Below, in pieces: positions 3,001-47,407 of a DNA stretch of 64,000 bases; position 1 is the stretch's first letter; every line of letters begins with the position of its first letter. The stretch spans positions 209,160 through 273,159 of the forward strand of contig CAZLCD010000001.1 of assembly GCA_964558375.1 (NCBI GenBank), read 5' to 3'. The notes under the pieces were generated by a model. The model was not told the origin of the DNA. It saw nothing but the letters and a program-made list of their open reading frames with translations, and ran no database searches. This DNA comes from an uncultured Candidatus Saccharibacteria bacterium (GTDB taxonomy: Bacteria; Patescibacteriota; Minisyncoccia; Phycocordibacterales; PALSA-1337). A program made the position numbers and the translations under genes.

Positions 3001-6000
3001 GTCAGACGACCTCATCACTTGGAGGAACCTCACTCATTCTTTCATCAGGTCAGGGTAGTTTGGCGGGTGGTCGGACAAGTGGTATTTTCGGATCAGCAAC
3101 CACCACATCATCTGGAAATGGTTCAATCGCTTGGGGGTATGCTGAGTCTGCAGGTCCAGGTACTTCCGCCAACCTAACCTCTTCCGGCACAGGTTCTATT
3201 GTTCTTGGTGCAGCCTCTAACAAGAATCTAACCTCTTCTGCTATAGGTTCATTTGCTGGTGGTTATGCAAGTGCTGGTAATATTCTTTCTTCTGCAGATG
3301 GTGCGTTTGCATTCGGAGATAACATCACAGCTTCTGCTGCACTTTCCACTGCCTTCGGTTCTGGGTTTACAAACAACACTGCAAATAGCTTTATGGTTGG
3401 TTATGGTTCAACTCCAACTCTTACAGTAGATGCTACAAATGTAGGTATCGGTACCACATCTCCATATGCAAAACTTTCTGTTGTTGGCCAAGCTGTCGCT
3501 GCATACTTCACCGCTACTACTTCCACCGCTTCTACTTTCCCTTACGCTTCTACTACAGCTATTACTTCTTCAGGTTCTGCGTATTTTGGAACTTCATCTG
3601 GTGGAGTATTGATCGGTACAACCACAGCCAACTCAACCTCAAAACTCACCCTAGCAGGAGGAAACTTCATACACACAGCTGTCGGTGACCCGACATTGAA
3701 GGGTACATACAACACACCCGGCACTTCTGGTGGGGTATATGTCTCTGGTAAATATGCTTATGTAGCAGACGGTACATCTCTTCAAATTATTGATATATCA
3801 AACCCAGCATCACCAACTTCTATAGGATCATACGCATCTTCTGGATCAATATTTTCTGTATCCGTCTCTGGTAAATATGCCTATGTTACAGTATCTGATT
3901 TACTAGGATCTTTTTTAATTATTGATGTTTCAAATCCAGCATTACCAACACTTGTTGGTTCAGCAATTACTAGTAGTGATGTATCTTATTCCTATGTTTC
4001 TGGAAAGTATGCATATGTTTCTGATAATCTTGCTGGACTAAAGATTTTTGACATTTCAGATCCTAGATCACCAAGTCTTCTTTCAACATATGCTCCAGGT
4101 ACTGAGAATACGGGTGTATATGTTTCTGGTAAATATGCATACATTGCAGATAGTTCATCTGGTATTCAAATCCTAGATATTTCAAATCCAGTCTCACCGT
4201 CTTTGATGGGAACATATAATACTAGTGGCGCAGCTCTCGGTATATATGTTTCTGGTAAATACGCATATGTTGCAGATGGTAGCTCAGGTCTACAGATTGT
4301 AAATATCTCTAACCCAGCCTCACCGGCTCTTGTTGGAACATATAATACTACTGGAACCGCCTATGATGTTTACGTCTCTGGAAGATACGCATATGTTGCT
4401 GATGATACCTCAGGCGTCCATGTTATCGATGTCCTAAACCCAGCTTCGCCATCTCTTGTAGGAACATACAATACATCAGGCAATGCTGCTGGAATATATG
4501 TCTCTGGTAAATACGCATATGTAGCAGATAGTGCCTCCGGCCTCCAAATCCTCGACATCAACGGTATCGAAACCCCATCCCTATACGCAGGTAATATCGA
4601 AACCAACGTCCTCAATGCCACAGAAAACATAATCGCAGGAGGAGACATCTATGCTCAAGGAGGATTAAATGTCGGTATCTCTGGTATCTTCTCTAGAGGA
4701 ACTATCTCAGCTTTTATAGCTTCTACAACTCAGACAAATCCTGTGGTTGCTACATTTATGGGGGGGAATGTGGGAATTGGAACTACCTCTCCATGGCGTA
4801 GACTATCTGTAAATGGTTCATCAGATCTTGGTATAAATGCTCTAGCTGGATACTTCACCGCTACTACTTCCACTGCTTCTACTTTCCCTTATGCTTCGAC
4901 CACAGCCATCACTTCTTCAGGTTCTGCTTATTTTGCTACTACTGGTGGGAATGTGGGAATTGGAACAACTTCACCTTATGCAAAACTTTCTGTTGTCGGT
5001 CCGGTAGTTGCAGAATATTTTAATGCTACAAGTACAAATGCGACTTCTACTTTCCTGGGAGGGGTCGCTATAGGTGGACCATTTAGAGGACAAGTAAGTC
5101 CATACACAAGAGTAGAATTTTCTGATCCTACTAGTGGTTATTATTCTGATTGGAGTTTTGATCTAGCTGGAGGCGGATCAGGTGCTATTAATTTTGGTTC
5201 ATCTGCTGGTACATATGCCTCTAGAAGTGTGAGAACACTTACCCCTTCTGTTATAGGTACATATCTATATAACACACTAGGATCAATGATCAGTCGTACT
5301 TGGGACGGAACAGCTTTTAAAGAATCATCAGCTATTTCATTTGAATACGATGCAGCTTTAGGTACCAATGATGTTCCTGGAGCTATATCTTTCTATACAT
5401 CCGCAGATGGTACTGCTACCCCTCGAAACCGTATGATGATTCGTAGTAGTGGAAACGTCGGTATCGGTACAACTTCTCCTTATGCAATACTCACTACCTG
5501 GGGAACTACTACAGGCAAAATCTTTGAAGCTGTAACTTCTGCTTCTACTACAGCTCTCTCTATCTCTGCTACAGGTTTTGCAACTACTACTGTATCTGGT
5601 CTAACAATTGCAGGATCTGCTACCTCTACATCCAATGTAGGCTTCAATCTTTCCGGAGGATGTTTTGCGGTCAATGGTACTTGTGTAGGAGGATCTTCTT
5701 CTGGTTCAAGTTTTGCATACCCATTTACCCCAACAACTAACTATAGTTCAACCAATCAAGCAACAACAGGTATAGCATGGTTCCAGAATGGTATAAATGC
5801 ATCTTCAACATCACATTTTGTAAATGCTTCTACTACCATGATATCTGTAAATGACTTACTCATCAGTAGTCCAGTGGCTAACAGTTTGTTTGTAGGTACA
5901 GATGCTGGTATGGGTGCAACTAGTGCTCTCAACTCACACTTCATTGGATATAATTCTGGTAATAGCGCTACCAATGCTTATGAAGCTAACTTTATCGGAA

Positions 6001-8432: not shown

Positions 8433-8450
8433 ATAAATGATTAAAATAAA

Positions 8451-11400
8451 ATGATAAACCATCAAGTCAAAAGTTCATATGCCATAGCAATAATCTCCAT
8501 TTTATTTTTCTGTGCATTATTTGTAGTCAATTTTGCAAGGAAAGAGATAGCTAAAATAAACTTTGTAGCTTATATACCGGAAGCTCGAACACTTCTAGCA
8601 CAAGCAGGGGGAAGTCTGAGTGATGGACTAGTGGGGCATTGGACTTTTGATGAGGGAAGTGGAACTACAGCGGGGGATTCTAGTGGGGCGGGGAATAATG
8701 GAACTCTGGTGAATTTCCCTTCAGATGGTTCTGGATGGGTTGATGGGTATTTTGGAAAGGCGCTAAAATTTAATGGAACAAACACTTATGTAAATCTACC
8801 AAAAATTTTGGCCAATAAAACCCAATTTACAATATCAATGAGGGCAAGGTTTGATGGTGCGACAGATTTTCAGGGAGCACTTATGGGTCACTCAAATGGT
8901 GGATTCTACATTCGAAAAGCTGGTTCATGTAATAGTATCATCACTTGGGTAGTAAATAGCTTGAGTACAAATGTTGGAGCCTCTCTCAATGGATCTCCTT
9001 CAAGTGGTATTGCCTGTGATAGTTGGCAAATGCATACATTTACCATGCAAACAAATGGAACTTTTTCATATTATATAGATGGAGAATTTATAAAATCTGC
9101 AACCCATCCATCATGGGATTCTTTCAATGCTTCACATGACAATAGGATTGGTCAATATGCCGGGTCTGGTTATGTATGGAATGGTCTCATAGATGATACT
9201 AGAATATATGATCGTGCTCTATCTGCTGTAGAAATTTCCGAACTTTATAATCAAGGTACACCAAATGAAGTAGTAGAAGTGTCTACAGCGGATAGAGAAG
9301 CACCAAGTATACCAGCGAATCTAGTTGCTACTTCTGTGTCAGCAACACAAAACAATCTTTCATGGGATGCCTCTACAGATAATGTCGGTGTGACTGGATA
9401 CAAGGTATATAGAGGAACAACCGATATCGGTAATACCACAAACCCTACTTTTCAAGATACAAATGTTCCCTCAGACAACTCTAGCGTCTATACTACTTCT
9501 ATATACACCGTACTTGCATATGATGCTCAGAATAATAGATCGAACAAATCCGCATCAGCTTCCGCTACTTTTCAGTCAGCCAATACAGAGAATCCAGCTA
9601 ATGTTGCTCAAAATTTAAATGGACTAACTCTAGGAACTAATCTGAGGATAGATAATCTTGGAGCGCCCTTGAAAGGTAATACTCAAGAGCATCAAGTAAT
9701 GTATAAAACAAATGATGGTCATAGACATTTACAAATGTACTATGATACTTTTGGTGCATCACCTATCGATGTTGTAGATATTGATCTCGAAAACGCTAAA
9801 GTTGTAAAATCTTCTCTCGAAAGAAATGTAGGGAGAGTCGGTACTCGTTGTCATGTGTTCTATCCAGCAAATAACAAAATGTATATAGGTAGTAGTGATC
9901 CAGGAAGCTTTAGTGAATTTGATCCTACTACCGGAGCGACCAAGTATATAAGTGCAGTAAAGTACAAAGGTGCCTATCATTGTGAAATAGGTGATGATGG
10001 ATGGATATATATAGGGCAAATAACTGCAGGTGTAGTTAAGGGGGCAGGTCTCGAAAGATACAATCCTACGACTGGTGTATGGCAAGATCTAGGAGTCATC
10101 GACCCTGCTTTTAATGGTGCTTTGCAATATGCTTACACATTAGGTGCTGACAATCGATATGTATATATTAGTCTCGGTCAACTTCCATGGTATCTAGCTG
10201 TATATGATACTCAAGCTACTTCAAATAAGATCAAGATTTACTTTAAAGAGAATGGAGATACTAATAGTAATATTTCAAAGGGTGCAGATGGCAAATGGTA
10301 TTATACAAAATATCATTTAGGAGAGACTCCGTATAAAAGAATGTATAAATTTGAAAATGGCATTCCAGTAGAAGTAAGTAGTACGCCAGTTTTGGATCAA
10401 TGGTATCAGCAGAGCAATGTGATATCTGACAAGTCAGCATTTAAGCAAGTTTTTAATACTGAAGTAAATTTTGATAAGGCAAATTCAAATTCAGAGAACG
10501 GGGGCACGGTAGAGATAAGTTGGAAGACAGATTCTGGATCTTGGCAATCTGCTACAGTGAATGGTCTCAGTCAGGTAGCAAGAACTATCAAGCGCCTGTA
10601 TCCATGGCCAGGCAGAGAAGATAAATTTCTGGGATGGGCTTCTGAATATGGATTAGTGTTTTTGTATGATGCTTCATCAAAAGATATTCAGTCATTAGGG
10701 TATCCAACAAGAAGTCTTTATGACGCTGTTTTTGTTGGTCCGATTATCTATATATCCGGATACACAGCCATTACTATGAAGTATGATCCAAGCAAACCTT
10801 GGACACTTTCAGCTTCGACCCTAGATCCGAAGTCGACTTCTGTTAATCCATACATCTTTTATGGTCAATATGGTAAGTATCATTACTATTCAACTCTAGG
10901 TTCAGATGGAATGCTATATATTGCCACCCACCATGAGCGAGGTTCAGTGGGAGGAGAGATTGCTTGGTACAACCTGAGTTCTGGCGCATCGGCTAGTCTT
11001 CGAGAACCTTTTCTGGACTATGATGTAAGTGATCTAAAAAGCGCTCTCAATGGTACCAAGATTGTCTACTCCAGTAGTAAAGATAAATTATTTATTTTCG
11101 ATGTTGCCACAAAAAGAATTGAAAGGGAAATCACTCCTATACCTGGCAATATGGAAATTGATAAAATTTTTGAAACTGAACCCGGGATTATCTTCGGTAT
11201 ATATGACACAAAATACTTCAAAGCAAATATTCAAACAGGAGAAATTATATACATAAAAGATCTTGGTGGCAGAGCTTTCCCTGGGATTCCTGCTTATGAT
11301 CGCAGACTTGTAAAAGGTCCTGACGGGTATGCTTGGCTATTTATCGATGATAAATTATCAAGAATCAATCCAGTGGACGGTACAATTCAAAAAATAATGA

Positions 11401-12011
11401 CAGCCCCAGTATCTAGCTTTATTTTTAATGGTAATGATTTGTATTTCTATGGAGGTACCACTATAAGTAGGATCAGAAATATTTTAATTGGAGAGATTAC
11501 AAATACTCCATCCATCTCTCTACCTGTAACAAACCCAGATCTTTTAAATACAGAAGATAGCCTTCCTGTAAACGCCTCCTGCTCCACCCGTCTAAACAGA
11601 TGCTCAACTGGTTCAGTCTCCGGTAGAACCTCCAACACTACTCATAACTTATGGACTTGTAATGGACTCAATGGTGGAACTAATGCTTCTTGCTCTATAT
11701 TAAAAACAGCACAAGATCCAGTAAATCCTATAGTCCCTGTAGATCCTTTACCTCTCCAAGCTCCTTTAACCCCAACCTACACTCCAGCATACACACCAAC
11801 TCATACTCCAACTACATACGTATACAAGAAACCAGCAACCCCTGCACCCAAAGTTATATCTCCCACCCCAGACCTCCCACCCTCCCCATCCTTCGAACCT
11901 CTAGACTTTATACCCACCGACTATATTCAGATATTACTCGACTTGATCAAACAATTCTTCATTGATCTTGTGGAGAGGATTAAGAGGGGAGTAGATAGAA
12001 TAATTGGATAG
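8451..12011 (+). CDS. secreted multi-domain protein: signal/TM, LamG (Laminin_G_3-like) lectin domain, FN3 domain, beta-propeller-like core, 4-Cys module, conserved C-terminal tail domain
   Basis: N-terminal hydrophobic segment, then 'LVGHWTFDEGSGTTAGDSSG..NGTL' through 'IDDTRIYDRALSAVEISELYNQG' (LamG). 'APSIPANLVATSVSATQNNLSWDAS..GVTGYKVYRG' is FN3. 'CSTRLNRCSTGSVSGRTSNTTHNLWTCNGLNGGTNASCS' is the Cys module. The C-terminus reads '...PDLPPSPSFEPLDFIPTDYIQILLDLIKQFFIDLVERIKRGVDRIIG'. Confidence 0.85.
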   Translation: MINHQVKSSYAIAIISILFFCALFVVNFARKEIAKINFVAYIPEARTLLAQAGGSLSDGLVGHWTFDEGSGTTAGDSSGAGNNGTLVNFPSDGSGWVDGYFGKALKFNGTNTYVNLPKILANKTQFTISMRARFDGATDFQGALMGHSNGGFYIRKAGSCNSIITWVVNSLSTNVGASLNGSPSSGIACDSWQMHTFTMQTNGTFSYYIDGEFIKSATHPSWDSFNASHDNRIGQYAGSGYVWNGLIDDTRIYDRALSAVEISELYNQGTPNEVVEVSTADREAPSIPANLVATSVSATQNNLSWDASTDNVGVTGYKVYRGTTDIGNTTNPTFQDTNVPSDNSSVYTTSIYTVLAYDAQNNRSNKSASASATFQSANTENPANVAQNLNGLTLGTNLRIDNLGAPLKGNTQEHQVMYKTNDGHRHLQMYYDTFGASPIDVVDIDLENAKVVKSSLERNVGRVGTRCHVFYPANNKMYIGSSDPGSFSEFDPTTGATKYISAVKYKGAYHCEIGDDGWIYIGQITAGVVKGAGLERYNPTTGVWQDLGVIDPAFNGALQYAYTLGADNRYVYISLGQLPWYLAVYDTQATSNKIKIYFKENGDTNSNISKGADGKWYYTKYHLGETPYKRMYKFENGIPVEVSSTPVLDQWYQQSNVISDKSAFKQVFNTEVNFDKANSNSENGGTVEISWKTDSGSWQSATVNGLSQVARTIKRLYPWPGREDKFLGWASEYGLVFLYDASSKDIQSLGYPTRSLYDAVFVGPIIYISGYTAITMKYDPSKPWTLSASTLDPKSTSVNPYIFYGQYGKYHYYSTLGSDGMLYIATHHERGSVGGEIAWYNLSSGASASLREPFLDYDVSDLKSALNGTKIVYSSSKDKLFIFDVATKRIEREITPIPGNMEIDKIFETEPGIIFGIYDTKYFKANIQTGEIIYIKDLGGRAFPGIPAYDRRLVKGPDGYAWLFIDDKLSRINPVDGTIQKIMTAPVSSFIFNGNDLYFYGGTTISRIRNILIGEITNTPSISLPVTNPDLLNTEDSLPVNASCSTRLNRCSTGSVSGRTSNTTHNLWTCNGLNGGTNASCSILKTAQDPVNPIVPVDPLPLQAPLTPTYTPAYTPTHTPTTYVYKKPATPAPKVISPTPDLPPSPSFEPLDFIPTDYIQILLDLIKQFFIDLVERIKRGVDRIIG

Positions 12012-12025
12012 ATAATCTGATATAA
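11757..12025 (+). repeat. family 3' tail repeat, copy 1: Pro/Thr linker 'TPTYTPAYTPTHTPT.Y.YKKP', the 'PDLPPSPSFEPLDFIPTDYIQILLDLIKQFF..' domain, and the shared downstream 'tagataatctgatataataaa'
   Basis: DNA is about 85% identical over roughly 255 nt with 17307-17580 and 22507-22765. A diverged copy lies at 56650-56898. Copies 1 and 2 also share about 20 nt of intergenic sequence after the stop codon. Confidence 0.85.
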
Positions 12026-12039
12026 TAAAATGCAAATGT

Positions 12040-15000
12040 ATGAATAGATTTTTAAAAATAATTTTACTTGTTACAATCACTGTTTCTTCAGTATCATCTA
12101 TAAATATTTCTACCGCATCTGCTAGTCTCACTGATGGCCTCGTAGCTCACTATACTTTCGATGACAATACAAATGACTCTGCTGGAACAAACAACGGTAC
12201 TGCATCAGGTGGACCAAGTTATGTAGAGGGTAAAGTGGGGAAGGCACTGCAGTTTGACGGAACCAACGACTATATAACTCTCAGTAACACTTCAGCAGCA
12301 GACATGACAACAAATAACTTCACAGTTTCTCTGTGGCTTAAAACAAATACAACAGCAACAACTCAGTATAGGTTAATAAGCAAAAGAGGTAGTGATGGGT
12401 ATGAGATCTATCTTGGTTCCGGACAAAATGGTCTCGCTGCATACTGTGATACTACTGGAGGTGGATGTTTAAATGATAATAATCTTGGAACGGCGAGCGT
12501 GAGAGATATGAAGTGGCATCATGCTGTAGTTGTGTTTGACCGTAGTGGAAATATGACTGGATATGTTGACGGTAATGTTGGTTCAAGTCCATCAAATATC
12601 TCAGCTGCAGTAGGATCTATGACAGTTGCTCAAAATCTAATGATTGGTCAATATAGTAATGGGGGTGGTGACTATTTCAACGGCACCCTCGACGACGTCC
12701 GCGTCTATAACCGGGCTTTGTCTGCTGATGAAATAATTCAATTGTACAATCAAAGTTCTGATTCCACACCAGATATTCCTGTAGAAGAAGTGCCTGATGA
12801 TACTCCAACGGATCCAACCTCAACTCCAACCCAATATAACCTATCTGTTTTAATGAGTGGTTCTGGTAATGGATCTATATCCGGTACTGGTATTTCATGT
12901 GGTACTGATTGTAGTGAAGTTGTAAATTCAGGTACGCAAGTAACGCTTACGGCTTCTCCAGCAAATAGTTCAAGTATTTTTTCTGGGTGGAGTGGAGGTG
13001 GGTGTTCCGGTACAGGAAACTGTGTAGTCACAGTCTCTTCAGACAAAACAGTAACTGCAACATTTACAACTCAACCATTAGTAATAGATGGTAAAAATAC
13101 AGTTACCCAATCAATGTTTTATACAAAAAACGGTTTATATAATGGATATGTTCGTGACAATACAGGATTCCATCCTTTTGTAGCAGATTCATTTCCAGGA
13201 CACTATATTAAAGCTGCAGATTTAAAAGGTATTAGTCAAGCATCAATCATTCCATTGGACCAGACATATTATGGTGATAATCTTGGAAATCAAGTTAATG
13301 GTTATCCCGCTAGTGAAGCAGCAGTAAAGCTCTCAGTTGGTGGAGATTCAATTTCTCTTGATTTGGTTAATATTGAATATGGAGTCTATGTGATTAGATT
13401 GGTTGGTAGGGTAAATCAACCTACCATTCCACGTATCAGGAAACCCCTCTATGTTCATTTAAAAATAAACGATGGACCGAATGGTGAAGTGAATGATTAT
13501 CGAATGAGGGTACTGTATTCTAATAACCTAGAAGAAACTGGCAGAATATTCTTTAATGCTCTAAAACCAAATAATAATCTTCATGCGGAACTTTTTGTTG
13601 GTCCAGGCAGTCAAGAAGATTTATTAATACACAGAATAGATTTTTTTGATGCGCTAGCCGATATACAGAAAAAAGCTGTGAAGACCTCAGCGACTACATA
13701 TACAGCAGAAGAAAAATCTTCTGCTCAGACTCAGGGTAAAAAACTAATAGGTCTAGGTACACGCTCATCAGATTGCGGCTTCTTTGGGATAGATTATTGC
13801 GGAGATAATATTTTTTGGCAATGGTTCAATGGTGGCTACACAACGACTCCAGCTGTGTCTTCTGCAGAAACTCGTCGACAAAGAGATGATATTATCTGGA
13901 ATGCTTTACCACCACTAAATGCCATGACAGCTGGTATAGATGGTACATACAATGCTTATGATAAATGGCCAAATGGTATGACGACTGCAGAGGTTGTCGA
14001 ACAATATGGGAAGTGGGAACTCGATCCGATAGTTACAAATCAGCAATATATCTATCAATACTATGACAGACCTTGGAAAATAGTTAATAAAAAATTGAAC
14101 CTAGAATATACCTTAGAAGATTACAAGGCTCACAAACCCCTACCCGATCCGTACCCTTTTAAAGATGATGGAAGTGGTGTTTATTTTCCAGCATCAACCC
14201 ATGACAGTCCAGGTACATATCAATTCATTATTGCTCCACTCATACTACAGAGAATACAAGGTCAATACTCAACTTCTTTTTTTGATCCAGCTGGTGGGCC
14301 GGGACTCAATTTACCATACAGGTATTTTTTGACTAATGATGAAAAAGTTGCAAGAGATACAGCTCTTGCCTTGGTCAGATTTTCTTCACAATGGCCAGCA
14401 TTTCAGTTTGAAGCTCAAGACCTTGCTTACAATAGCGCTCTTCCAGAGCTAGTTTTTAATGGAGCTTGGCGATGGACCAATGCTCGTATTGGTAAGGTTG
14501 TAGGTATAAAAGAAGACGAAATCCAAGGTTATCTCTATGCCTATGACTATCTTTTTGATTATATTAAAAATAATCAGGAATTAGCAGACGCTGTGCACAG
14601 ATATATACCATGGGTTCAAACCCCCGATGATATTATTGAACTGATCGATACTCATTTTGTTAAATCTTTAAAAAATGATATTAGTAATAAAAGAGTAATT
14701 TTTACAAAGCCCCTATTGATCGACCTTGTTCTTCAAGATACAGCGATAGAGCAGACGGAAAGCCCAATGGATATTTCAAAAATAATTAACTTCATTCATC
14801 CTCTCACTACTTCACTTAAAAATCACTATAGCAACTCCTTTACTCAAAATGGCACTATGTTCATAGGGTCATCTTTCTATGTTATCGGAGAATCTTCGGC
14901 ATTTATTAATATGCTTGACCCAATGACGCGCTACAAGGATTCGACTGGGAAATCTATTCCGTATGATCTGACTAATCTTGATTTGTTTCCAAAGGTTAGG

Positions 15001-17562
15001 GAATATTGTAATACTTTTTCTGATTATACAGTGGCGGGAGGTTACGAACCATCTTTTGGTGATGCCGCAGATACTATCTATGAAAAACGCCAGCTAAATC
15101 CAGGATTGGTTTCCCAAATTAAAAATATGTGGAGATTCTGTAGGAATCCCAAAGCCGCTTGGTTGCTTGTTAATGTGGTCGGAAGAACTGATCAAAGTAA
15201 TACTGAATGGTCTTCTGCTCAGTCGGCAGCTAATAATGTTCGTGATCCTAGAATTTCTTCTAATTCAAGAACATTAAATGGTCTAGGTCTAGGTATATTA
15301 GAGAGTGGCGTTAGTTCAAATGACTATAGAGATAAACGAGCGGTAATGGTTAGAACCGGTAGTGGTTATGGGCATGAACACCACGATGCTCTAGACCTTA
15401 GCTGGTTCGCTCTTGGACTTCGAATGGGAACTGATTATGGACAGAGGAATGAAGGAAACTTATATACCGTACCCAATGATGAAGCTTCGAATACTCACAA
15501 TGTCCTAGAGGTTGATGGTTTAAAGCATCCATTGAGAGCGACTGATGGTTGGCCATCAGGAAGTTTCTCTGCTTCAGATGCGTGGATATCAGTTTTTGCC
15601 CCAGAAAATGGAGCTCAATATATCTCTGCTCAATCAAAATCAGCTGACCATACCAATGTTAATATTTTCAGGCGAGATACTTCACTTATAGATATAGACG
15701 ATAAGAACTCCTATGTATTCGATGTCTTTAGAGTTGGTGGTGGACAAATGCACACATGGTCTTTCCATGGAGCTGATACATCAGGAGAATCTGGCGGTCT
15801 ACAAGTTAATGTGCCTATGAACTCGACTCTAGATAGTGATGCTAGTCAGTATCTTAGAAAACATGCAGAGGGTACTAGAACACAGGGTGTGGCAACTAAT
15901 AAAATTGAAGCAACATGGAGATTAGGTAGGACTTCAAATACTGCAAATCTTAACAATGCTGATGGTGCATCACTCTCAGTTACAACTGTCGCTGCAGAGC
16001 AAAGTATGCTGGGTTCTGATTACAATGCTTCCTCCCCAAGAAAATATACCAAGACTACTTTATTCGACAGATCGGGTGATAAAGTCATGATGGGTAATCT
16101 GTATTCTGCATACTACAAAATTAATGAACCAAATCTTTTTGTACAATCAGGAACTGGTGGTAGTTATAACTCTGGAAGTAATAAGCAAGATGTATATCCT
16201 GCTATAATTGAAGCTTACGCTGGTTCATCTCTTATCTCCGCTAGTCAATCACTTTCTGTTACTCCGAATGAATCTGATGCTCTAAAAGCTGTTGCGCTTT
16301 CAGTCACTACTACAAATGGTAATAATGATATATTGTTTTCAGATGGAAGAAATACAACTCGTACGATCGGAGGGGGTACTATGACCGCCAATGCGCAATT
16401 TGGTTACTATTCATCAAATGCTGGAAATATGAGAATGATGACTATTGTTGGTGGTACAAATCTAACAAAAGGAAATTATTCTCTAAAACCATCCGTTGCA
16501 GTAAATTCCTCTACTATCCAAAGTGTTAATTATCGTGATCGTAAGATATATACATCTTCAAAATTTCCAAAAACTCTTATCAATCGCGACTTTCATATAA
16601 AAAATACTGATCACGAAACTTCATACAAAATAATCAATATTGTTGACTCTGGCTCTGGTAGTATACTTACCTTCGAAAAACCTGCAGATATCGGGGTTCT
16701 TAAGATTGATGGCCTGTCAGGTAACACCATTACATCCTCAGATAGTTGGATTTTAGACTATACACCTAACAGAAATAGGGGATTAACCGGTACAAATGAA
16801 TCTGGTTCTAAAGTTTTTAAGATTAAAAAGACGGCAAGTAATGGCGGAAGTTCAAATACAATTTCTGGAGCATCTGTTTCTCAAGCTGATTTTACTGATA
16901 TTGATGGAGATGGAATCTCTCAGGTACTTGTATATGATTTTGGCATAGGCGATACAATAGAGGTTGCATCCGCCTCAACTTTAAAAAGAGTAAATAACAA
17001 TGATATATATCAACTAACAAGTAACACACCTCTGTCTGTAACTTTACCTGGTACTGGAAGCTTGGAAATTAGTTCAAATTCTTCTAGTTGGACAAAGATT
17101 AACAGTACCTTATCTACAAATTCAGTAACAGCGAACATTACTGAATCACAACTACTATCAGGTATCAAATATGTTAGAGCTTCATCAAACCCTGGTATTA
17201 ATCTTACATTAGAAGAGTTGAAAAAATTAGAGGACCAAGCTCTTCTTAATGTACCTCTTAATCCACTTACCCCATTACCTAACCCAGATCCTTTTCCTCT
17301 CTCCCCGCTAAATCCTACTACTCCAACCTACACTCCCGCATATACACCAACCCATACTCCAACACCCTATACCTACAAGAAACCAGTAACTCAAGCACCC
17401 AAGGTTATCTCTCCAACCCCAGACCTCCCACCCTCCCCATCCTTCGAACCTCTAGACTTCATACCCACCGACTATATACAGATATTACTCGACCTTATTA
17501 AACAATTCTTCATCGATCTTATAGAAAGGATTAAGAGGGGAGTAGATAGGATAATTGGATAG
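12040..17562 (+). CDS. secreted multi-domain protein: signal peptide, LamG domain, InlB-B-repeat-like Cys domain, large alpha/beta core (possibly heparinase II/III-like polysaccharide lyase; weak call), conserved C-terminal tail domain
   Basis: 'MNRFLKIILLVTITVSSVSS' is the signal peptide and LamG ends '...LDDVRVYNRALSADEIIQLYNQS'. 'SGSGNGSISGTGISCGTDCSEVVNSGTQVTLTASPANSSSIFSGWSGGGCSGTGNCVVTVSSDKTVTATF' fits the divergent InlB B-repeat pattern. 'YGHEHHDALDLSWFALGL' recalls heparinase II/III motifs with low confidence. The C-terminal tail is identical in type to that of 8451..12011. Confidence 0.85.
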   Translation: MNRFLKIILLVTITVSSVSSINISTASASLTDGLVAHYTFDDNTNDSAGTNNGTASGGPSYVEGKVGKALQFDGTNDYITLSNTSAADMTTNNFTVSLWLKTNTTATTQYRLISKRGSDGYEIYLGSGQNGLAAYCDTTGGGCLNDNNLGTASVRDMKWHHAVVVFDRSGNMTGYVDGNVGSSPSNISAAVGSMTVAQNLMIGQYSNGGGDYFNGTLDDVRVYNRALSADEIIQLYNQSSDSTPDIPVEEVPDDTPTDPTSTPTQYNLSVLMSGSGNGSISGTGISCGTDCSEVVNSGTQVTLTASPANSSSIFSGWSGGGCSGTGNCVVTVSSDKTVTATFTTQPLVIDGKNTVTQSMFYTKNGLYNGYVRDNTGFHPFVADSFPGHYIKAADLKGISQASIIPLDQTYYGDNLGNQVNGYPASEAAVKLSVGGDSISLDLVNIEYGVYVIRLVGRVNQPTIPRIRKPLYVHLKINDGPNGEVNDYRMRVLYSNNLEETGRIFFNALKPNNNLHAELFVGPGSQEDLLIHRIDFFDALADIQKKAVKTSATTYTAEEKSSAQTQGKKLIGLGTRSSDCGFFGIDYCGDNIFWQWFNGGYTTTPAVSSAETRRQRDDIIWNALPPLNAMTAGIDGTYNAYDKWPNGMTTAEVVEQYGKWELDPIVTNQQYIYQYYDRPWKIVNKKLNLEYTLEDYKAHKPLPDPYPFKDDGSGVYFPASTHDSPGTYQFIIAPLILQRIQGQYSTSFFDPAGGPGLNLPYRYFLTNDEKVARDTALALVRFSSQWPAFQFEAQDLAYNSALPELVFNGAWRWTNARIGKVVGIKEDEIQGYLYAYDYLFDYIKNNQELADAVHRYIPWVQTPDDIIELIDTHFVKSLKNDISNKRVIFTKPLLIDLVLQDTAIEQTESPMDISKIINFIHPLTTSLKNHYSNSFTQNGTMFIGSSFYVIGESSAFINMLDPMTRYKDSTGKSIPYDLTNLDLFPKVREYCNTFSDYTVAGGYEPSFGDAADTIYEKRQLNPGLVSQIKNMWRFCRNPKAAWLLVNVVGRTDQSNTEWSSAQSAANNVRDPRISSNSRTLNGLGLGILESGVSSNDYRDKRAVMVRTGSGYGHEHHDALDLSWFALGLRMGTDYGQRNEGNLYTVPNDEASNTHNVLEVDGLKHPLRATDGWPSGSFSASDAWISVFAPENGAQYISAQSKSADHTNVNIFRRDTSLIDIDDKNSYVFDVFRVGGGQMHTWSFHGADTSGESGGLQVNVPMNSTLDSDASQYLRKHAEGTRTQGVATNKIEATWRLGRTSNTANLNNADGASLSVTTVAAEQSMLGSDYNASSPRKYTKTTLFDRSGDKVMMGNLYSAYYKINEPNLFVQSGTGGSYNSGSNKQDVYPAIIEAYAGSSLISASQSLSVTPNESDALKAVALSVTTTNGNNDILFSDGRNTTRTIGGGTMTANAQFGYYSSNAGNMRMMTIVGGTNLTKGNYSLKPSVAVNSSTIQSVNYRDRKIYTSSKFPKTLINRDFHIKNTDHETSYKIINIVDSGSGSILTFEKPADIGVLKIDGLSGNTITSSDSWILDYTPNRNRGLTGTNESGSKVFKIKKTASNGGSSNTISGASVSQADFTDIDGDGISQVLVYDFGIGDTIEVASASTLKRVNNNDIYQLTSNTPLSVTLPGTGSLEISSNSSSWTKINSTLSTNSVTANITESQLLSGIKYVRASSNPGINLTLEELKKLEDQALLNVPLNPLTPLPNPDPFPLSPLNPTTPTYTPAYTPTHTPTPYTYKKPVTQAPKVISPTPDLPPSPSFEPLDFIPTDYIQILLDLIKQFFIDLIERIKRGVDRIIG

Positions 17563-17580
17563 ATAATCTGATATAATAAA
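17307..17580 (+). repeat. family 3' tail repeat, copy 2
   Basis: See copy 1. The identity is visible directly, for example in 'cccagacctcccaccctccccatccttcgaacctctagacttcatacccaccgactatat'. Confidence 0.85.
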
Positions 17581-17584
17581 GTGA

Positions 17585-19756
17585 ATGATAAAATTATTTA
17601 AAATTACTTCTGTTTGCATTTCGATTGCTATAGTCTTCTTATTATCCCTACCCACCACGACCCATGCCCTCACCCTCACTAGTAGCTCAAATAACCTAGG
17701 TCTCAATGCTGGACTTGTAGGATGGTGGACCTTCGACGGTAAAGACGTGGTCAATGGTAGAGCTTTAGACAAGTCAGGAAATGCAAATCATGGAACTCTC
17801 ACCAACATCTCTACTTCCACCTTCTATACCACAGGCAAGATCGGGCAGGGGTTTAGGTTTGATGGCACCAACGACTATATAACTCTCAGTAACACTTCAG
17901 CAGCAGACATGACAACAAATAACTTCACAGTTTCTCTGTGGCTTAAAACAAATACAACAGCAACAACTCAGTATAGGTTAATAAGCAAAAGAGGTAGTGA
18001 TGGGTATGAGATCTATCTTGGTTCCGGACAAAATGGTCTCGCTGCATACTGTGATACTACTGGAGGTGGATGTTTAAATGATAATAATCTTGGAACGGCG
18101 AGCGTGAGAGATATGAAGTGGCATCATGCTGTAGTTGTGTTTGACCGTAGTGGAAATATGACTGGATATGTTGACGGTAATGTTGGTTCAAGTCCCTCAA
18201 GTATATCAGCTGCAGTAGGCTCTATGACGGTCGCACAAAGTCTAATGATTGGTCAGTATAGTAATGGTGGCGGTGACTATTTCAACGGCTCCCTCGACGA
18301 CGTCCGTGTCTATAATCGAGCACTCTCAGCCACTGAAATCCGCCAACTCTACAACCAAGGAGCAGCCACCAAGCAAGGTGTAGCCCAGAAGGTAACAGCA
18401 ACTTCTACCTGTAGTACAGGACTATCCTGTGGGCTCGTCGGCTACTGGTCCTTTGATGGTAAAGATGTAGTAAACGGTAGAGCTCTAGATAAGTCAGGTA
18501 ATGCAAATCATGGAACTCTTACAAACATCTCCACCTCTACTTTCTATACAACAGGCAAGATCGGGCAGGGGTTTAAGTTCGATGGGGTGAATGATACCGT
18601 AAACATAGCTACAAACATGTTTGCCAACAGGACTGAGTTTTCATTGATGGTGTGGACCAAAAAAACTAAAGGAACTACAGGTTCTGTATTTTCTTCTTCT
18701 AACGGTGGTCCATATTGGAGATTCACTTCTGCAACCACAATATTGCATTATATAGAAAAATCAGACTGTACAGGATCTTCGAGAGGTGTAGCATATCCAG
18801 ATGATGGCAAGTTTCATTATATTGGTTTTACGGTCAGTACAGCTGGACTCGTTAGATTTTATGTAGATGGAGTGGTAGTTGACTCTTATACATATCCTAG
18901 TTGGAATTATGCATGTGCAGATGCTACAGATTGGCGTAGTATCGGTTCTTACGCAGTATCCAATTATTTCAACGGCCTCCTCGACGACGTCCGCATCTAC
19001 AACCGCGCGCTCTCAGCAACCGAAGTCACCCAGCTCTACAACCAAGGTGCAGCAACCAAACAAGGTGTAGCACAGAAGGTAACAGCCACCTCCACCTGTA
19101 GTACAGGACTATCCTGTGGGCTCGTAGGCTACTGGTCTTTTGATGGTAAAGATGTAGTAAATGGAGTAGCGAGAGACAAGTCAGGAGGTAACAATCATGG
19201 TAACCTAGTGAATATCGCCACTTCTACATTCTATGTACCAGGCAAGATCGGGCAGGGGTTTAAGTTTGATGGGGTGGATGATTATGTGAGTGTAGGAAAT
19301 AATACGGTTTTGGCTCCGACAACTGCGGTAACTATTTCTGCATGGGTAAAGCCGTTAAGAAAGGTTGATTCCAGTCACTACTCGGCAATTACATCAAGAG
19401 GTTCTGTTAATTATTTATTTATGATAAGACACGGTGGTGTTGTAGTTTTTTATCTTCCAGGGGTGCAGAACTGGGTTACTAATGACGGCGCAAAAGATCT
19501 CTTTGACGGCCAATGGCACCATGCTCTTGTGACTTATGATGGTAGCTTCCAGCGATTATATATCGATACTACACTTATAAGTTCTAGTGCTATAACAGGA
19601 AATATCACATCAAACTCGAATACAACTCTTATTGGTAGAGATACTACTGGTGCATCAAATTTTAATTTCAACGGCCTCCTCGACGACGTCCGTATCTACA
19701 ACCGTGCTCTCTCCGCTACCGAAGTCCGTCAACTCTACAACCAAGGTAAAAAATAA
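17585..19756 (+). CDS. secreted protein made of three tandem LamG domains; it lacks the family C-terminal tail
   Basis: 'MIKLFKITSVCISIAIVFLLSLPTTTHA' is the signal peptide. Three LamG units each end 'LDDVR[IV]YNRALSATE[IV].QLYNQG'. Linker 'AATKQGVAQKVTATSTCSTGLSCGLVGYWSFDGKDVVNG' occurs twice. The first LamG shares about 350 nt of near-identity with 12040..17562. Confidence 0.85.
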   Translation: MIKLFKITSVCISIAIVFLLSLPTTTHALTLTSSSNNLGLNAGLVGWWTFDGKDVVNGRALDKSGNANHGTLTNISTSTFYTTGKIGQGFRFDGTNDYITLSNTSAADMTTNNFTVSLWLKTNTTATTQYRLISKRGSDGYEIYLGSGQNGLAAYCDTTGGGCLNDNNLGTASVRDMKWHHAVVVFDRSGNMTGYVDGNVGSSPSSISAAVGSMTVAQSLMIGQYSNGGGDYFNGSLDDVRVYNRALSATEIRQLYNQGAATKQGVAQKVTATSTCSTGLSCGLVGYWSFDGKDVVNGRALDKSGNANHGTLTNISTSTFYTTGKIGQGFKFDGVNDTVNIATNMFANRTEFSLMVWTKKTKGTTGSVFSSSNGGPYWRFTSATTILHYIEKSDCTGSSRGVAYPDDGKFHYIGFTVSTAGLVRFYVDGVVVDSYTYPSWNYACADATDWRSIGSYAVSNYFNGLLDDVRIYNRALSATEVTQLYNQGAATKQGVAQKVTATSTCSTGLSCGLVGYWSFDGKDVVNGVARDKSGGNNHGNLVNIATSTFYVPGKIGQGFKFDGVDDYVSVGNNTVLAPTTAVTISAWVKPLRKVDSSHYSAITSRGSVNYLFMIRHGGVVVFYLPGVQNWVTNDGAKDLFDGQWHHALVTYDGSFQRLYIDTTLISSSAITGNITSNSNTTLIGRDTTGASNFNFNGLLDDVRIYNRALSATEVRQLYNQGKK

Positions 19757-19768
19757 TCTAAATGAATT

Positions 19769-22762
19769 ATGAATAGATTTTTTAAATTAATTTTATTTCT
19801 CACTATAATTATCTCAGTATCTCTTTCTACCAACATACCTAACGTATCCGCTAGTCTCACAGATGGACTAGTATCACACTATACTTTCGATGAAGGAAGC
19901 GGAACCACTGCAGGGGATTCTGCTGGGTCGAATGCAGGGACACTTACAAATGGACCGACTTGGGCTACGGGGAAAGTGGGAAGTGGGGCACTACAGTTTG
20001 ATGGAACGGATGATTTTGTAAAGTTAACTTCTCGCATTACATCCCCAGGTACTTTTTCTATGAGTCTATGGTTCTATCCAAAAACGGTATCTTATGCTGG
20101 AGGAGTTTTGATCGGTGGTTTAAATGCAAATTCTCAGATCACTGCAGGTCCTATTGTTACAGTAAGAGACAATGGTGCAGCGGCAACTGATGTAGCTATA
20201 TTAAAACCACTTTTTGCCAATAAATGGCAACATCTAGCTGTGACCCGTGGTGCGAGTAATGCTATTTTAATTTATCTAAATGGAGAAAATGTAACCACAG
20301 GCACTCCGACTTTTTCTATCACAAAATATTGGGATTATATCGGTAGTCGCTCTGATGGTCTATATCCTTTCTCTGGTTCCCTCGACGACATCCGCATCTA
20401 CAGTCGTGTTCTAGATTCTAATGAAATAGAAGAATTAAATGATATGGGTGCAGTTGTAGCTTCTGGGGACACGGAAGCACCTTCCATACCCTCTGGTCTC
20501 ACAGCTTCTCCCACATCACAATCAAAAATCAATCTATCTTGGACTGCATCTACAGATAACACTGCCGTAACAGGATACAAGATATACAGAGGTGGTTCAG
20601 AAATAGCTACCACACCAAATACTTCCTATGAAGATACAGGACTATCTCCTAGTATTCCATACACCTACACAGTACTAGCCTATGATGCTATAGGTAATCA
20701 AAGTGAAAAATCCTCTCCTACCTCTGCAACTATACAATCAGATACTCCTGTCGCAGATACACCTCCACCGGCTGACAATACAGTATGGTACGTCTCACCT
20801 ACAGGAACATCAGCTGGAACTGGTTCCATTACTAGTCCTTGGGATCTACAGACAGCTTTTACTAATACAGGTAAGAAGATAAAACCGGGACATACTGTAT
20901 GGATGCGGGGAGGGGTTTATGGGCTCGGAGGAAATACAGTTTTTGGTCATCGATGGGATGGGTTGAGTGGAACAAGTGGTAATCAAATTACTTTTAGAAA
21001 TTATGCAAATGAGCGAGCTATTATAAATGGATCTATCGCTGGAAGTGGAAATTACCTTACTTTCTTTGGATTTGAAATAATGAATTCAAATCCTGTGCGT
21101 AAGATCAGTACTTTTGATAAGCCAGGAGGGATAAATATAGGTGGTAAGGGTAACAGAGTGATCAATCTGGTTATACATGATGTAGGACATTCACCAATTG
21201 GAGGAATATCCGAAGGAGAAATTTACGGAGTAATAATGTGGGGTAGCGGTATATACGATACAAGCAATCCATTATATCCAAATGGTCTAGCCCGAGGATC
21301 TGGTATGTACCTCCAGAATCGTAATGGAAACTCTTATGTTTCCGATTCAATTTCTTTTAAGCAATTTACGACTGGAATGAAAGCCTATGCACAAGAAGGA
21401 CATGTTAATGGATTTAAATTTGAAGGCAATGTAGTGTTCGATAACAATGATATAAACCTTGAAACTATCGCAATTACAAATCCAGCTAAGGATATTTCCT
21501 GGATAGAAAATTACACTTACACAGATCCTCTTGATATTAAAAAGCCAGCACAGCTAGGATGGGTTTCAAACGATATGATAGATGCAATAGTCAAAGATAA
21601 TTATTTTGTAAATGGAAGTAATCCTAAAGGAGCACTCTTTGTTCATAAATGGAAAGATTTAAATGTGACCGGTAATACTTTTATCTCTCAACGACAAGCT
21701 GCTAACGTTCCAGTATTGTCTTTCGATATGCCTGACACCACGACTTCACATACCTGGAACTCCAACAAATATTACGGAGGCAATTCATCTTCTCTATTTT
21801 TCCTCGACAATGTTGCTAAGACCTTCGATCAATGGAAATCCACCACCGGCTTCGACTCCAACAGCACCTACTCATCATCTCTACCTAGTACCAATGCCAT
21901 TTTCGTAAGACCAAACAAATACGAACAAGGAAGAGCACATGTCATTGTCTATAACTGGGAAAACAAAAACCAAGTAAATGTAAACATTTCAAATATAGGA
22001 CTTCAAACAGGAGACAACTTTGCTATATTCGATGTACAGAACTTCCTAGGAGAACCAGTAATGAGAGGAGTGTATAATGGTCAGTCAGTAGATCTTCCTA
22101 TGAACCTCACCACCATCACTCCTCTCATCGGTAGACAAAACATTACACATTTCAATCCAAACACTCATACAGACAAGAAATTCAATGTCTTTGTTGTCTT
22201 AAAGACCAATGGAGTCTATTCTCAACAGAACTATGTGATCCCTCCACCTCCAGCAAACCTTCCTCCACCCACAGTAGAGATACCCAATCTACCAATTGAC
22301 TTACTAGTGAATGGATCTTGTTCTACACGGTTGAATAGATGCTCAAACGGCACAGTATCTGGTAGAACCTCCAACACTACCCACAATCTCTGGACTTGTA
22401 ATGGTTTAAATGGAGGTACCAACGCTTCTTGCTCTACCTTAAAGACAGTAGAAGATCCTGTAAATCCTATAGCACCTGCAGATCCTTTACCGACTCCTCC
22501 TTCTGCACTAAACCCCCTAACCCCAACCTACACTCCAGCATACACCCCAGCACACACTCCAACACCCTATACCTACAAGAAACCAACCACTTCCACACCC
22601 AAACCAATAGCAGGAACCCCTGATCTCCCACCCTCCCCGTCCTTCGAACCTCTAGACTTCATACCCACCGACTATATACAGATATTACTCGACCTAATTA
22701 AACAATTCTTCATTAATCTTATGGAGAGGATTAAGAGAGGGGTGGAGAGGATAATTGGATAA
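19769..22762 (+). CDS. secreted multi-domain protein: signal peptide, LamG, FN3, parallel beta-helix-like core (pectate-lyase-fold candidate), 4-Cys module, conserved C-terminal tail domain
   Basis: 'MNRFFKLILFLTIIISVSLS' is the signal peptide and LamG ends 'LDDIRIYSRVLDSNEIEELNDMG'. 'APSIPSGLTASPTSQSKINLSWTAS..AVTGYKIYRG' is FN3. Repetitive 'G..N..I..' turns are consistent with a beta-helix. The Cys module is 'CSTRLNRCSNGTVSGRTSNTTHNLWTCNGLNGGTNASCS'. The tail reads '...PDLPPSPSFEPLDFIPTDYIQILLDLIKQFFINLMERIKRGVERIIG'. Confidence 0.85.
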   Translation: MNRFFKLILFLTIIISVSLSTNIPNVSASLTDGLVSHYTFDEGSGTTAGDSAGSNAGTLTNGPTWATGKVGSGALQFDGTDDFVKLTSRITSPGTFSMSLWFYPKTVSYAGGVLIGGLNANSQITAGPIVTVRDNGAAATDVAILKPLFANKWQHLAVTRGASNAILIYLNGENVTTGTPTFSITKYWDYIGSRSDGLYPFSGSLDDIRIYSRVLDSNEIEELNDMGAVVASGDTEAPSIPSGLTASPTSQSKINLSWTASTDNTAVTGYKIYRGGSEIATTPNTSYEDTGLSPSIPYTYTVLAYDAIGNQSEKSSPTSATIQSDTPVADTPPPADNTVWYVSPTGTSAGTGSITSPWDLQTAFTNTGKKIKPGHTVWMRGGVYGLGGNTVFGHRWDGLSGTSGNQITFRNYANERAIINGSIAGSGNYLTFFGFEIMNSNPVRKISTFDKPGGINIGGKGNRVINLVIHDVGHSPIGGISEGEIYGVIMWGSGIYDTSNPLYPNGLARGSGMYLQNRNGNSYVSDSISFKQFTTGMKAYAQEGHVNGFKFEGNVVFDNNDINLETIAITNPAKDISWIENYTYTDPLDIKKPAQLGWVSNDMIDAIVKDNYFVNGSNPKGALFVHKWKDLNVTGNTFISQRQAANVPVLSFDMPDTTTSHTWNSNKYYGGNSSSLFFLDNVAKTFDQWKSTTGFDSNSTYSSSLPSTNAIFVRPNKYEQGRAHVIVYNWENKNQVNVNISNIGLQTGDNFAIFDVQNFLGEPVMRGVYNGQSVDLPMNLTTITPLIGRQNITHFNPNTHTDKKFNVFVVLKTNGVYSQQNYVIPPPPANLPPPTVEIPNLPIDLLVNGSCSTRLNRCSNGTVSGRTSNTTHNLWTCNGLNGGTNASCSTLKTVEDPVNPIAPADPLPTPPSALNPLTPTYTPAYTPAHTPTPYTYKKPTTSTPKPIAGTPDLPPSPSFEPLDFIPTDYIQILLDLIKQFFINLMERIKRGVERIIG

Positions 22763-22765
22763 TCC
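22507..22765 (+). repeat. family 3' tail repeat, copy 3
   Basis: See copy 1. Confidence 0.8.
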
Positions 22766-22873
22766 GCAATTCACAACATTGACTTTCCCTCAATCTTCCT
22801 GTATCTTATTCAATGTAAGTTTTCCTAGTCGCTTACAGTTTATTTATTTAAGACGGGTTAAAAGTAAAAGAAA

Positions 22874-26227: not shown

Positions 26228-26243
26228 ATGTTAATATTATAAC

Positions 26244-27110
26244 ATGAACAATAAAGATTTTAATTTAAAAAGTTATGTACAAGAGGCTCGCAGCAAAAAA
26301 GTCGCCATCGGACACTTCAATGTTTCCAATCTTGAAATGTTCCATGGGGTCTGGAATGCCGCTTCAAAGCTTAAAGTGCCGGTTATTATAGGAGTGTCTG
26401 AAGGCGAGAGAGATTTTATGGGGATCACTGAAGTTATTTCACTGGTCCGTACCTTAAGAGAAAAATACAATTATCCAATTTTTATAAATGCTGATCATAC
26501 TTATTCTTTTGAGAGAGTAAAGGAGGCAATAGATGCTGGTTTTGATTCTGCTATCTTTGATGGCACAGAACTTCCACTTGAAGAAAATATTGCAACCACA
26601 AAGAAATGTGTAGAATATGCCAAGTCTATAAACTCAAATATTTTATTAGAAGCAGAAGTCGGCTTCATCGGTAAGTCTTCCAAGCTTCTCGACAAAGTTC
26701 CAGATGGAGTAGGAAGAGTAACTACAGTGGAGGAGGCAAATGATTTTATAAATCAAACCAAGATCGACATGCTTGCTCCAGCTGTGGGTAATGTTCATGG
26801 AATGGTCAAGGGAGGAGAGCCGAAGCTCGATACACAGAGAATTAAGGAAATAGTAGATGCGACTGGTGTGCCACTTGTTCTACACGGCGCTTCTGGCAAT
26901 TCTGTAGAAGACGTAAAAGCATCCATTGAAGCCGGCATATCTATAGTGCATATTTCTACAGAGATTCGCGTGGCATATATCGAAGCTTTGAAGAAGTCTC
27001 TATCAGACAATCCAAAAGAGATCGCTCCTTATAGATATTTAAATCCTACAATCGAGGCTGTAGAAAAAGTTGTTACAGAAAAGCTAAAATTATTTAATAA
27101 TATAGTATAA
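26244..27110 (+). CDS. fba: class II fructose/tagatose-bisphosphate aldolase
   Basis: 'GHFNVSNLE', 'NADHTYSFERVKEAIDAGFDSAIFDGT', 'LEAEVGFIG', 'VGNVHGM' and 'LHGASG' are present. Confidence 0.85.
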   Translation: MNNKDFNLKSYVQEARSKKVAIGHFNVSNLEMFHGVWNAASKLKVPVIIGVSEGERDFMGITEVISLVRTLREKYNYPIFINADHTYSFERVKEAIDAGFDSAIFDGTELPLEENIATTKKCVEYAKSINSNILLEAEVGFIGKSSKLLDKVPDGVGRVTTVEEANDFINQTKIDMLAPAVGNVHGMVKGGEPKLDTQRIKEIVDATGVPLVLHGASGNSVEDVKASIEAGISIVHISTEIRVAYIEALKKSLSDNPKEIAPYRYLNPTIEAVEKVVTEKLKLFNNIV

Positions 27111-30753: not shown

Positions 30754-30771
30754 GGGTGGTATAATATTGGG

Positions 30772-36940: not shown

Positions 36941-36949
36941 TGGTATAAT
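36941..36949 (+). promoter_or_regulatory. extended -10 element (TGgTATAAT) upstream of gyrB
   Basis: 'gaagcTGGTATAATttacc' lies 26 nt upstream of the gyrB ATG. Confidence 0.35.
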
Positions 36950-47299: not shown

Positions 47300-47407
47300 G
47301 GGGGTATTATAGCAAATTTAAAAAGTTATCCCCAAGTTCTTAAGATTTGATAAAGATTTTATGAATTTAGTTGTTGCATTTATATGGTGGATTGAGATAA
47401 TTCACCT

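Follow-up and report, generated by a model that had tools for sequence, protein, structure and literature searches.

The babA, babB and babC genes of Helicobacter pylori encode outer-membrane adhesin paralogs that have a variable middle and a C-terminal region (C-HR) that is more than 90% identical, and intragenomic conversion among these genes gives rise to chimeras (PMC4552749). In Neisseria gonorrhoeae a G-quadruplex (G4)-forming motif is linked to the recombining pilE locus, where gene conversion depends on the G4 and on a small RNA (sRNA); this motif lies upstream of the gene in non-coding DNA, the adjoining sRNA promoter leaves its G-rich strand unpaired, and silent donor cassettes exist (PMC3547852). 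Here we describe four genes, designated B, C, E and F, in a 64,000-nucleotide (nt) stretch of a contig from an uncultured Candidatus Saccharibacteria bacterium (GenBank assembly GCA_964558375.1; the whole stretch is called the window below), whose 3' ends carry copies of a tail of ~80 codons that are alike in DNA as well as in protein. The tail is a previously undescribed, lineage-restricted protein domain, and the likeness of its copies at the DNA level probably stems from tandem duplication, constraint on the spacer behind it, and recombination or gene conversion among the paralogs.

The closest analogue of this locus is a family of surface-adhesin paralogs like H. pylori babA/B/C, in which a variable middle lies between conserved ends and gene conversion brings about exchange. 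As in the bab genes, variable cargo is flanked by conserved sequence, the N-terminal signal region on one side and the 3' tail on the other, and silent sites give evidence of exchange; unlike in the bab genes, the tail is short, DNA identity among the B, C and E copies is no more than 81-87%, most of the genes lie in one tandem array, the host is one of the Patescibacteria, the C-terminal module is not a beta-barrel, and exchange is deduced from the sequence. With pilE/pilS the locus has in common a surface-protein family, conserved segments, conversion and a predicted G4 motif at a recombining locus; it differs from pilE in that the motif lies within coding sequence, on the template strand, in that no conserved promoter adjoins it, and in that no silent cassettes were found in the window. 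The process at work is an ordinary and familiar one, and what is novel is the undescribed C-terminal module on which it acts.

B, C, E and F encode paralogous proteins of the cell surface in a Parcubacteria/Paceibacteria-like bacterium of the Patescibacteria (candidate phyla radiation, CPR); the proteins are modular, each made up of a signal or anchor, a LamG head, variable cargo and the common C-terminal module. Translations of the open reading frames (ORFs) have a hydrophobic signal or anchor at the N-terminus in each of the four, and a Pfam scan found LamG in all of them, fn3 in E and F, and InlB B-repeats in C and F. The genes, the tails and their 66-nt cores are the following:

8451-12011, plus strand: gene B, 1186 amino acids (aa), secreted; N-terminal hydrophobic anchor or signal, LamG (PF13385, Laminin_G_3), Cys-rich module, tail (from ORF, Pfam and termini)
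12040-17562, plus strand: gene C, 1840-aa secreted LamG protein with tail (ORF, Pfam and termini)
17585-19756, plus strand: gene D, 723 aa, three LamG domains, without tail, within the array (ORF, Pfam and repeats)
19769-22762, plus strand: gene E, 997 aa, secreted; LamG, fn3, Cys-rich module, tail (ORF, Pfam and termini)
53014-56898, plus strand: gene F, 1294 aa, secreted; LamG, fn3, central domain of ~500 aa, InlB B-repeats, Cys-rich modules, diverged tail
11757-12011, plus strand: tail copy 1 (gene B), with Pro/Thr-rich linker, core and amphipathic helix
11862-11927, plus strand: core of copy 1, 66 nt, C-rich, encoding PTPDLPPSPSFEPLDFIPTDYI; antisense G4 motif at 11866-11887
17307-17562, plus strand: tail copy 2 (gene C)
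17413-17478, plus strand: core of copy 2; antisense G4 motif at 17417-17438
22507-22762, plus strand: tail copy 3 (gene E); core at 22613-22678, antisense G4 motif at 22617-22638
56668-56898, plus strand: tail copy 4 (gene F); core at 56728-56793, antisense G4 motif at 56732-56753

A preliminary description of this DNA had reported three tail copies about 85% identical in nucleotide sequence. They are real, with pairwise identities of 87.4% (copies 1 and 2), 80.6% (1 and 3) and 82.6% (2 and 3), and the count was short by one, the fourth copy lying at the 3' end of F (similarity from ~56668 to 56877). A 53-nt version of the core block quoted there occurs four times in the window with at most one mismatch, and had no match in 100 shuffles. 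The repeat search returned a 271-nt family at 11762-12032, 17313-17583 and 22513-22783, whose second and third members are 88% and 77% identical to the first, and a 154-nt family that includes the fourth member at 56728-56881; repeat families D4 and D5 and the blastn segments are consistent with the three copies given originally. Searches of the window with tblastn and nhmmer found exactly four tail copies and no extra partial or silent ones. Similarity reaches further 5' between B and E (11577-12010 and 22316-22761, 79% by blastn), and between B and C it carries on, interrupted by indels, past the stop codon and into the beginning of the following gene (11741-12063 and 17286-17609). The shared segment had also been called GC-rich, which is modestly true of the B, C and E tails (44-46% GC against 39.3% in the window) and not of the F tail (38%); the 66-nt core is 52-55% GC and mainly C-rich (43-48% C). 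Two antisense ORFs that mirror each other (11934-12131 and 17485-17772) are present in the ORF list, as described, and are plausibly by-products of the duplication.

The ages of tails and heads were compared at silent sites. For the six gene pairs we determined, among degenerate codons that specify the same amino acid in both genes, the share that are identical codons. This share is 57-77% in the tails and 32-51% in the heads, with the tails higher in all six pairs (Fisher p 3e-6 to 3e-3), while codon usage alone leads one to expect ~39-41%. Synonymous divergence (dS) and the proportion of synonymous differences (pS), both calculated by Nei-Gojobori, gave these values:

Tail dS, B and C: 0.49
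Tail dS, B and E: 0.72
Tail dS, C and E: 0.67
Tail dS, any copy and F: 0.85-1.2
LamG heads of the same gene pairs: pS 0.63-0.76 (saturated)

The pS of the B, C and E tails is 0.36-0.46. The comparison of tails with LamG heads, which the preliminary description had put forward as a check on homogenisation, therefore shows clearly lower synonymous divergence in the tails of the same gene pairs, and it follows that the tails are younger than the heads and the genes are mosaics.

Comparisons with F set the core apart from the rest of the tail. The dS of the 22 core codons against F is only 0.06-0.28, whereas the flanks are saturated against F (Fisher p 1.5e-4 to 8e-4 for codon identity in core and flanks, and p 0.001-0.01 in a run-length permutation), and C and F, whose copies are 39 kb apart, have 54 nt in exact agreement (17425-17478 and 56740-56793). 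Measured against P0008, a related protein from another genome that carries a different head and so is not a strict ortholog, F is 71% identical in its central domain and ~29% in its tail, while the F core is 100% identical to those of its paralogs. The informative sites of the tail form interleaved, conflicting patterns (eight join B with C and E with F, four B with E and C with F, and six B with F and C with E), although four sequences are few enough for homoplasy to be a possible cause. A related contig provides a reference: in L084, which is syntenic for TGT-PfkB-aldolase, the surface proteins at 2616-7199 and 8315-12100 have the tail motif VPLA.LDLN.SSW.WLF in common, yet 6 of their 14 same-amino-acid tail codons are identical (the random level), pS is 0.79 and there is no DNA repeat, so protein constraint on such a tail does not alone give silent-site identity.

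Copies 1 and 2 had further been described as identical past the stop codon, and the 24-mer GGATAGATAATCTGATATAATAAA that spans it indeed occurs exactly twice in the window, at 12006-12029 and 17557-17580 (0 expected). This identity had been taken as part of tail homogenisation, and is better read as an extended -10 promoter inherited by tandem duplication. The features concerned are these:

12012-12029, plus strand: 18 nt after the stop codon of copy 1, with the perfect extended -10 element TGATATAAT at 12018-12026, 13 nt before the start of gene C
17563-17580, plus strand: 18 nt after the stop codon of copy 2, identical to those of copy 1, with TGATATAAT at 17569-17577, 7 nt before the start of gene D
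12018-12026, 17569-17577, 26236-26244 (minus strand), 30757-30765, 36941-36949, 47306-47314 (minus strand) and 52990-52998: TGNTATAAT sites

When the junction of the B tail and C head is aligned with that of the C tail and D head, the alignment runs unbroken through the stop codon and the spacer into the beginning of the following gene; the duplicated unit thus spans the gene boundary, as tandem duplication predicts, and copies 1 and 2 share their post-stop sequence because the tail, the short spacer and the start of the next gene were duplicated as one unit. The post-stop sequence is absent after copies E and F, where the next genes are convergent, and for copy E this orientation accounts for the absence. 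The motif TGNTATAAT (TGnTATAAT, the sigma-70 extended -10) has eight matches in the window against 4.15 expected, and seven of the eight precede a start codon by 6-25 nt in the correct orientation: those of genes C, D and F, of the PfkB gene, of ORF 30772, and of gyrB and dnaE. Given the identity of the motif and these positions, the spacer is most likely a promoter for the downstream paralog, of the predicted extended -10 type; a classical -35/-10 scan did not flag it. The pattern suggests that the organism may rely on extended -10 promoters that lack a -35 element and may make mRNAs with no leader or a very short one, and extended -10 elements 6-25 nt ahead of start codons could serve as an annotation rule for it.

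Traces of exchange are present elsewhere in the locus as well:

12262-12590 and 17867-18195, plus strand: 329-nt tract, 100% identical, in the first LamG domains of C and D

The 5' boundary of this tract is sharp, with near-random identity just 5' of it, and identity decays on the 3' side. It appears to be a recent gene-conversion tract or, less likely, an effect of assembly, and it indicates that homologous exchange or conversion is active in the locus. Islands rich in GC at third codon positions (GC3 of at least 0.52, against a gene average of 0.23-0.37) lie at 4512-4628, 11871-11990, 12637-12756, 17395-17499, 18254-19753, 22616-22708 and 56731-56814; most GC3-rich islands overlap intragenomic repeats, namely the tail cores, the LamG motif FNG-LDDVR-YNRALS and a repeat in gene A (the first gene of the window, described below), and their position on repeats fits GC-biased gene conversion.

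We propose that the DNA likeness of the tails has three layers. Tandem duplication of a unit reaching across the gene boundary would have produced the likeness of copies 1 and 2 with their spacer and the following gene start; functional constraint on the spacer as an extended -10 promoter (TGATATAAT) would have preserved that part; and homologous recombination or gene conversion between paralogs would have made the tails younger than the heads at silent sites. Within the tail, a short tract of ~55-70 nt, the core, may have been copied between C/E-like copies and the distant copy F, and the simplest account would be an older spread of the whole tail and, on top of it, a single short tract converted between F and a C/E-like copy; how many such events there were, and in which direction they went, we infer from the sequences themselves. 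Several points weigh against this proposal. Younger tails could also be derived from grafting of the module onto older heads by domain shuffling. When B, C and E are compared with one another, conservation of the core does not significantly exceed that of its flanks (p 0.1-0.5), and the dS of these three tails is still ~0.5-0.7, so that homogenisation would be old or episodic. Head dS is unreliable at ~30% amino-acid identity, a problem that the codon test avoids; the 329-nt tract sits in a metagenome-assembled contig, where an assembly effect is possible in principle; and the GC3-rich island at 21713-21919 in gene E is not a repeat. The homogenisation by gene conversion, or concerted evolution, that the preliminary description had put forward thus holds in part: the silent sites, the tract in F and the 329-nt tract speak for it, and the B, C and E tails are not freshly homogenised. 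Its other proposal, that the shared segments could act as homologous recombination handles by which 5' cargo modules would be swapped, is a candidate role; the tail itself turned up in no other contig of the collections searched.

If no gene conversion had taken place, illegitimate recombination in the low-complexity Pro/Thr linker would have joined a younger, duplicated tail to heads that are older and unrelated, and the tail would have been maintained by selection on the protein and by selection for accurate translation, which at critical residues favours codons ending in C. The point at which homology ends on the 5' side does vary by pair, falling in or before the Pro/Thr-rich linker, the core codons are mostly NNC, the substantial dS of the B, C and E tails is fairly evenly spread, and the 495-residue central domain of F, 71% identical to proteins with other heads, shows that modules are shuffled in this lineage. 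Grafting nonetheless leaves the 54-nt identity of the F core to C unexplained, the rest of the F tail being saturated, and it has to contend with the random codon identity of the comparable motif kept at the protein level in L084, with the homologous exchange that the 329-nt tract attests here, and with the interleaved informative sites of the four sequences, and we consider it unlikely. That the repeats or their near-identity were created by mis-assembly or strain mixing in the metagenome-assembled contig seems extremely unlikely. Each of the proteins comes from a single 330-kb NCBI contig and is the sole member of its 90%-identity cluster, and perfect tracts such as that at 12262-12590 and 17867-18195 are where assemblers can merge strains; however, no two of the four tails are the same and each belongs to an intact in-frame ORF whose upstream domains are distinct, which makes an artefact unlikely for the tails, the divergence around the tracts is graded smoothly, and copy F lies between the housekeeping genes for SMC and RNase R.

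A different reading takes the 66-nt core as a nucleotide element under purifying selection (an antisense G4, a C-rich i-motif or an RNA site) that would initiate recombination or act as a shared regulatory site. Its silent sites are conserved in all four copies, the distant F included, and its codons are rare, C-ending ones (CCC 8-10%, TCC 10-12%, CTC 14-17%) that yield four C-runs. On the minus strand all four cores have a canonical G4 motif (GGGGAGGGTGGGAGRTCWGGGG; a sequence prediction, defined as (G3+N1-7)x3 G3+), and they have the strongest G4Hunter scores of the window (2.04-2.36 absolute). The 64 kb hold six G4-motif loci, all within this gene family, where shuffles lead one to expect 0.16, and the few variable sites of the motif fall in loops or flanks and none in G-runs, although this contrast is based on eight third positions. 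Between genomes, moreover, the helix end of the tail is best conserved and the core peptide poorly, the reverse of the pattern within this genome. Against such an element, silent-site conservation reaches ~40 nt past the G4 motif, and a single conversion tract from a C/E-like copy to F accounts for the statistics, the core being not significantly special within B, C and E. Tail plus spacer gave no sign of a stable RNA structure (z = 0.37), the four copies translated in six frames show no conserved alternative-frame or antisense ORF (the +1 frame is broken in E and the antisense frames are 20-40 aa long), and no consistent antisense or shared promoter-like site lies beside the four copies. The G-rich strand here is the template strand, the opposite of the arrangement in Neisseria, where the RNA pairs with the C-rich strand (PMC3547852), and C-runs are missing at the corresponding position of the related tails in L082 and L083. 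We judge a selected nucleotide element distinctly unlikely. Its boldest form, in which the C-rich core or its predicted antisense G4 would be a cis-acting recombination element promoting exchange among the surface-protein genes, and thereby programmed surface variation, we hold to be very unlikely; if true, it would mean that a surface-variation system of episymbiotic Patescibacteria is built into the coding sequence of the common C-terminal tail. Two more canonical G4 motifs lie at 17646-17675 (minus strand), in the signal-peptide region of gene D, and at 19962-19988 (plus strand), in the N-terminal part of gene E.

At the protein level the tail consists of a Pro/Thr-rich linker (PTYTPAYTPTHTPTPY-YKKP...), the invariant 22-residue Pro-rich PTPDLPPSPSFEPLDFIPTDYI and then QILLDLIKQFFIDLVERIKRGVDRIIG, and it ends in a 30-residue amphipathic helix that finishes RI-RG--R--G. 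AlphaFold2 predicts one helix at residues 33-62, the last 30 (predicted local distance difference test, pLDDT, 84-89), and coil elsewhere. This helix is not transmembrane, since it is amphipathic (hydrophobic moment ~0.8), has a low maximum 19-residue Kyte-Doolittle hydropathy (0.89-1.15) and carries D, K, E and R; seven of its nine heptad a/d positions are hydrophobic, so it could also be a coiled-coil docking element instead of a membrane-surface anchor. Most likely, to go by the modelled amphipathic helix, the tail attaches or assembles these proteins at the cell surface.

None of the four tails has a match in Pfam, whose domains are confined to the heads, or in NCBIfam at E <= 1. A hidden Markov model of the four tails, run exhaustively over 1.84 billion representative proteins, retrieved B, C and F themselves and nothing else, and tail patterns scanned over genome and metagenome contig collections matched no other contig. 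A word-indexed protein search found nothing, whether the query was the short tail or the C-terminal 171 residues of E, and this negative carries no weight for short low-complexity queries because the search also missed the window's own proteins that are present in that collection. Diverged tails were reached only indirectly, via homologues of the body of F: P0007 and P0008, which have the 495-residue central domain in common with F (71% identity) and different heads, end in ...GPFVPLPENTPEDISSTTPRTSIIATIKDIFSYVIERIWRGVERVMGR, which aligns without gaps to the window tails and has the invariant P/P/P/D and RI-RG positions. Used as a tblastn query against the window, the P0008 tail hits exactly the tails of E, C and B (E values ~3e-5 to 7e-5). 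Such diverged versions, ~30-40% identical, thus stand at the ends of related proteins in other Patescibacteria, while in the Taylorbacteria contig L081 no tail is common to its two large surface proteins. The two surface proteins of L084 share a different C-terminal tail variant, which hints that shared tails are general in the surface proteins of this lineage.

C-terminal sorting signals include those of the LPXTG/sortase, PEP-CTERM, PGF-CTERM and GlyGly-CTERM systems. Like these, the tail is found in several secreted proteins of one genome, near whose C-termini a short conserved motif leads into a helix and a group of basic residues (RIKRGVDR); unlike them, it has an amphipathic and charged helix, and a known C-terminal sorting domain was rejected, there being no Pfam or NCBIfam match and no transmembrane helix. 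No sortase- or exosortase-type enzyme was found among the window ORFs scanned. Penicillin-binding protein 5 (PBP5) of E. coli is exported by Sec and held by an uncleaved C-terminal amphipathic-helix anchor. The tail helix could likewise lie on the membrane surface, a likeness of layout for which no sequence relationship is expected, but unlike the PBP5 anchor it also fits a heptad pattern (7/9). A diversity-generating retroelement (DGR) was considered as well: as in DGR target genes, which combine a variable region at the 3' end with a template repeat, surface-protein genes of a Patescibacteria genome have repeats ~85% identical at their 3' ends. Here, however, all tail copies belong to full ORFs, the window contains no reverse-transcriptase domain, and mismatches are not adenine-specific (A is in 27-32% of them, equal to the A content of 31%), and this candidate was rejected.

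The remaining window is filled with housekeeping genes (TGT, PfkB, aldolase, RF, S2, EF-Ts, PheRS, GyrB, ThrRS, DnaE, NusB, RNase III, SMC, RNase R and TrmD), and an Rfam scan of the window found one tRNA and nothing else. The closest GyrB genes belong to Patescibacteria metagenome-assembled genomes with varied labels (Saccharibacteria, Taylorbacteria, Paceibacteria and Parcubacteria), and CAZBLC01, CAZVQB01 and JAYTHA01 are among the nearest relatives by this gene. Gene A (588-8432) encodes a 2614-aa protein with at least 14 LVIVD repeats and a Peptidase_S74 (endosialidase chaperone) domain near residue 2245; it has long internal DNA repeats (families D1-D3, D7, D9, D11 and D12), and its C-terminus is an acidic E/K/V-rich stretch, not the shared tail. 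A Cys-rich module of ~45 residues (C-x6-C ... W-x-C-x-G-x-NGG-x4-C) that has no Pfam match is encoded at 11565-11744, 22307-22450, 54010-54147 and 55921-56253; it stands before the tail in B and E, has several more copies in F, and is also present in the Taylorbacteria LamG protein P0114. A type IV pilin-like protein with an N-terminal methylation motif and LamG, a distant paralog of the B-F LamG heads, is encoded at 29182-30048. The ORF at 43531-44076 (181 aa, no Pfam match) contains a direct repeat at 43558-43784 (147-nt spacing, 80% identity) and a 44-nt exact repeat at 43645-43733, and at 47408-48232, between dnaE and the RNase HII gene, a protein is encoded that has BRO-N, a domain often found in phages.

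Attachment to other microbes is the way of life of Patescibacteria, whose large LamG/lectin-like surface proteins are prime candidates for the recognition of their hosts. This locus is a compact example of interchangeable heads and cargo on a common C-terminal module, in which duplication, module shuffling and short-tract conversion are visible at silent sites. It also defines an unannotated module, a Pro-rich motif followed by an amphipathic helix with RI-RG--R--G, that may hold these proteins on the cell.

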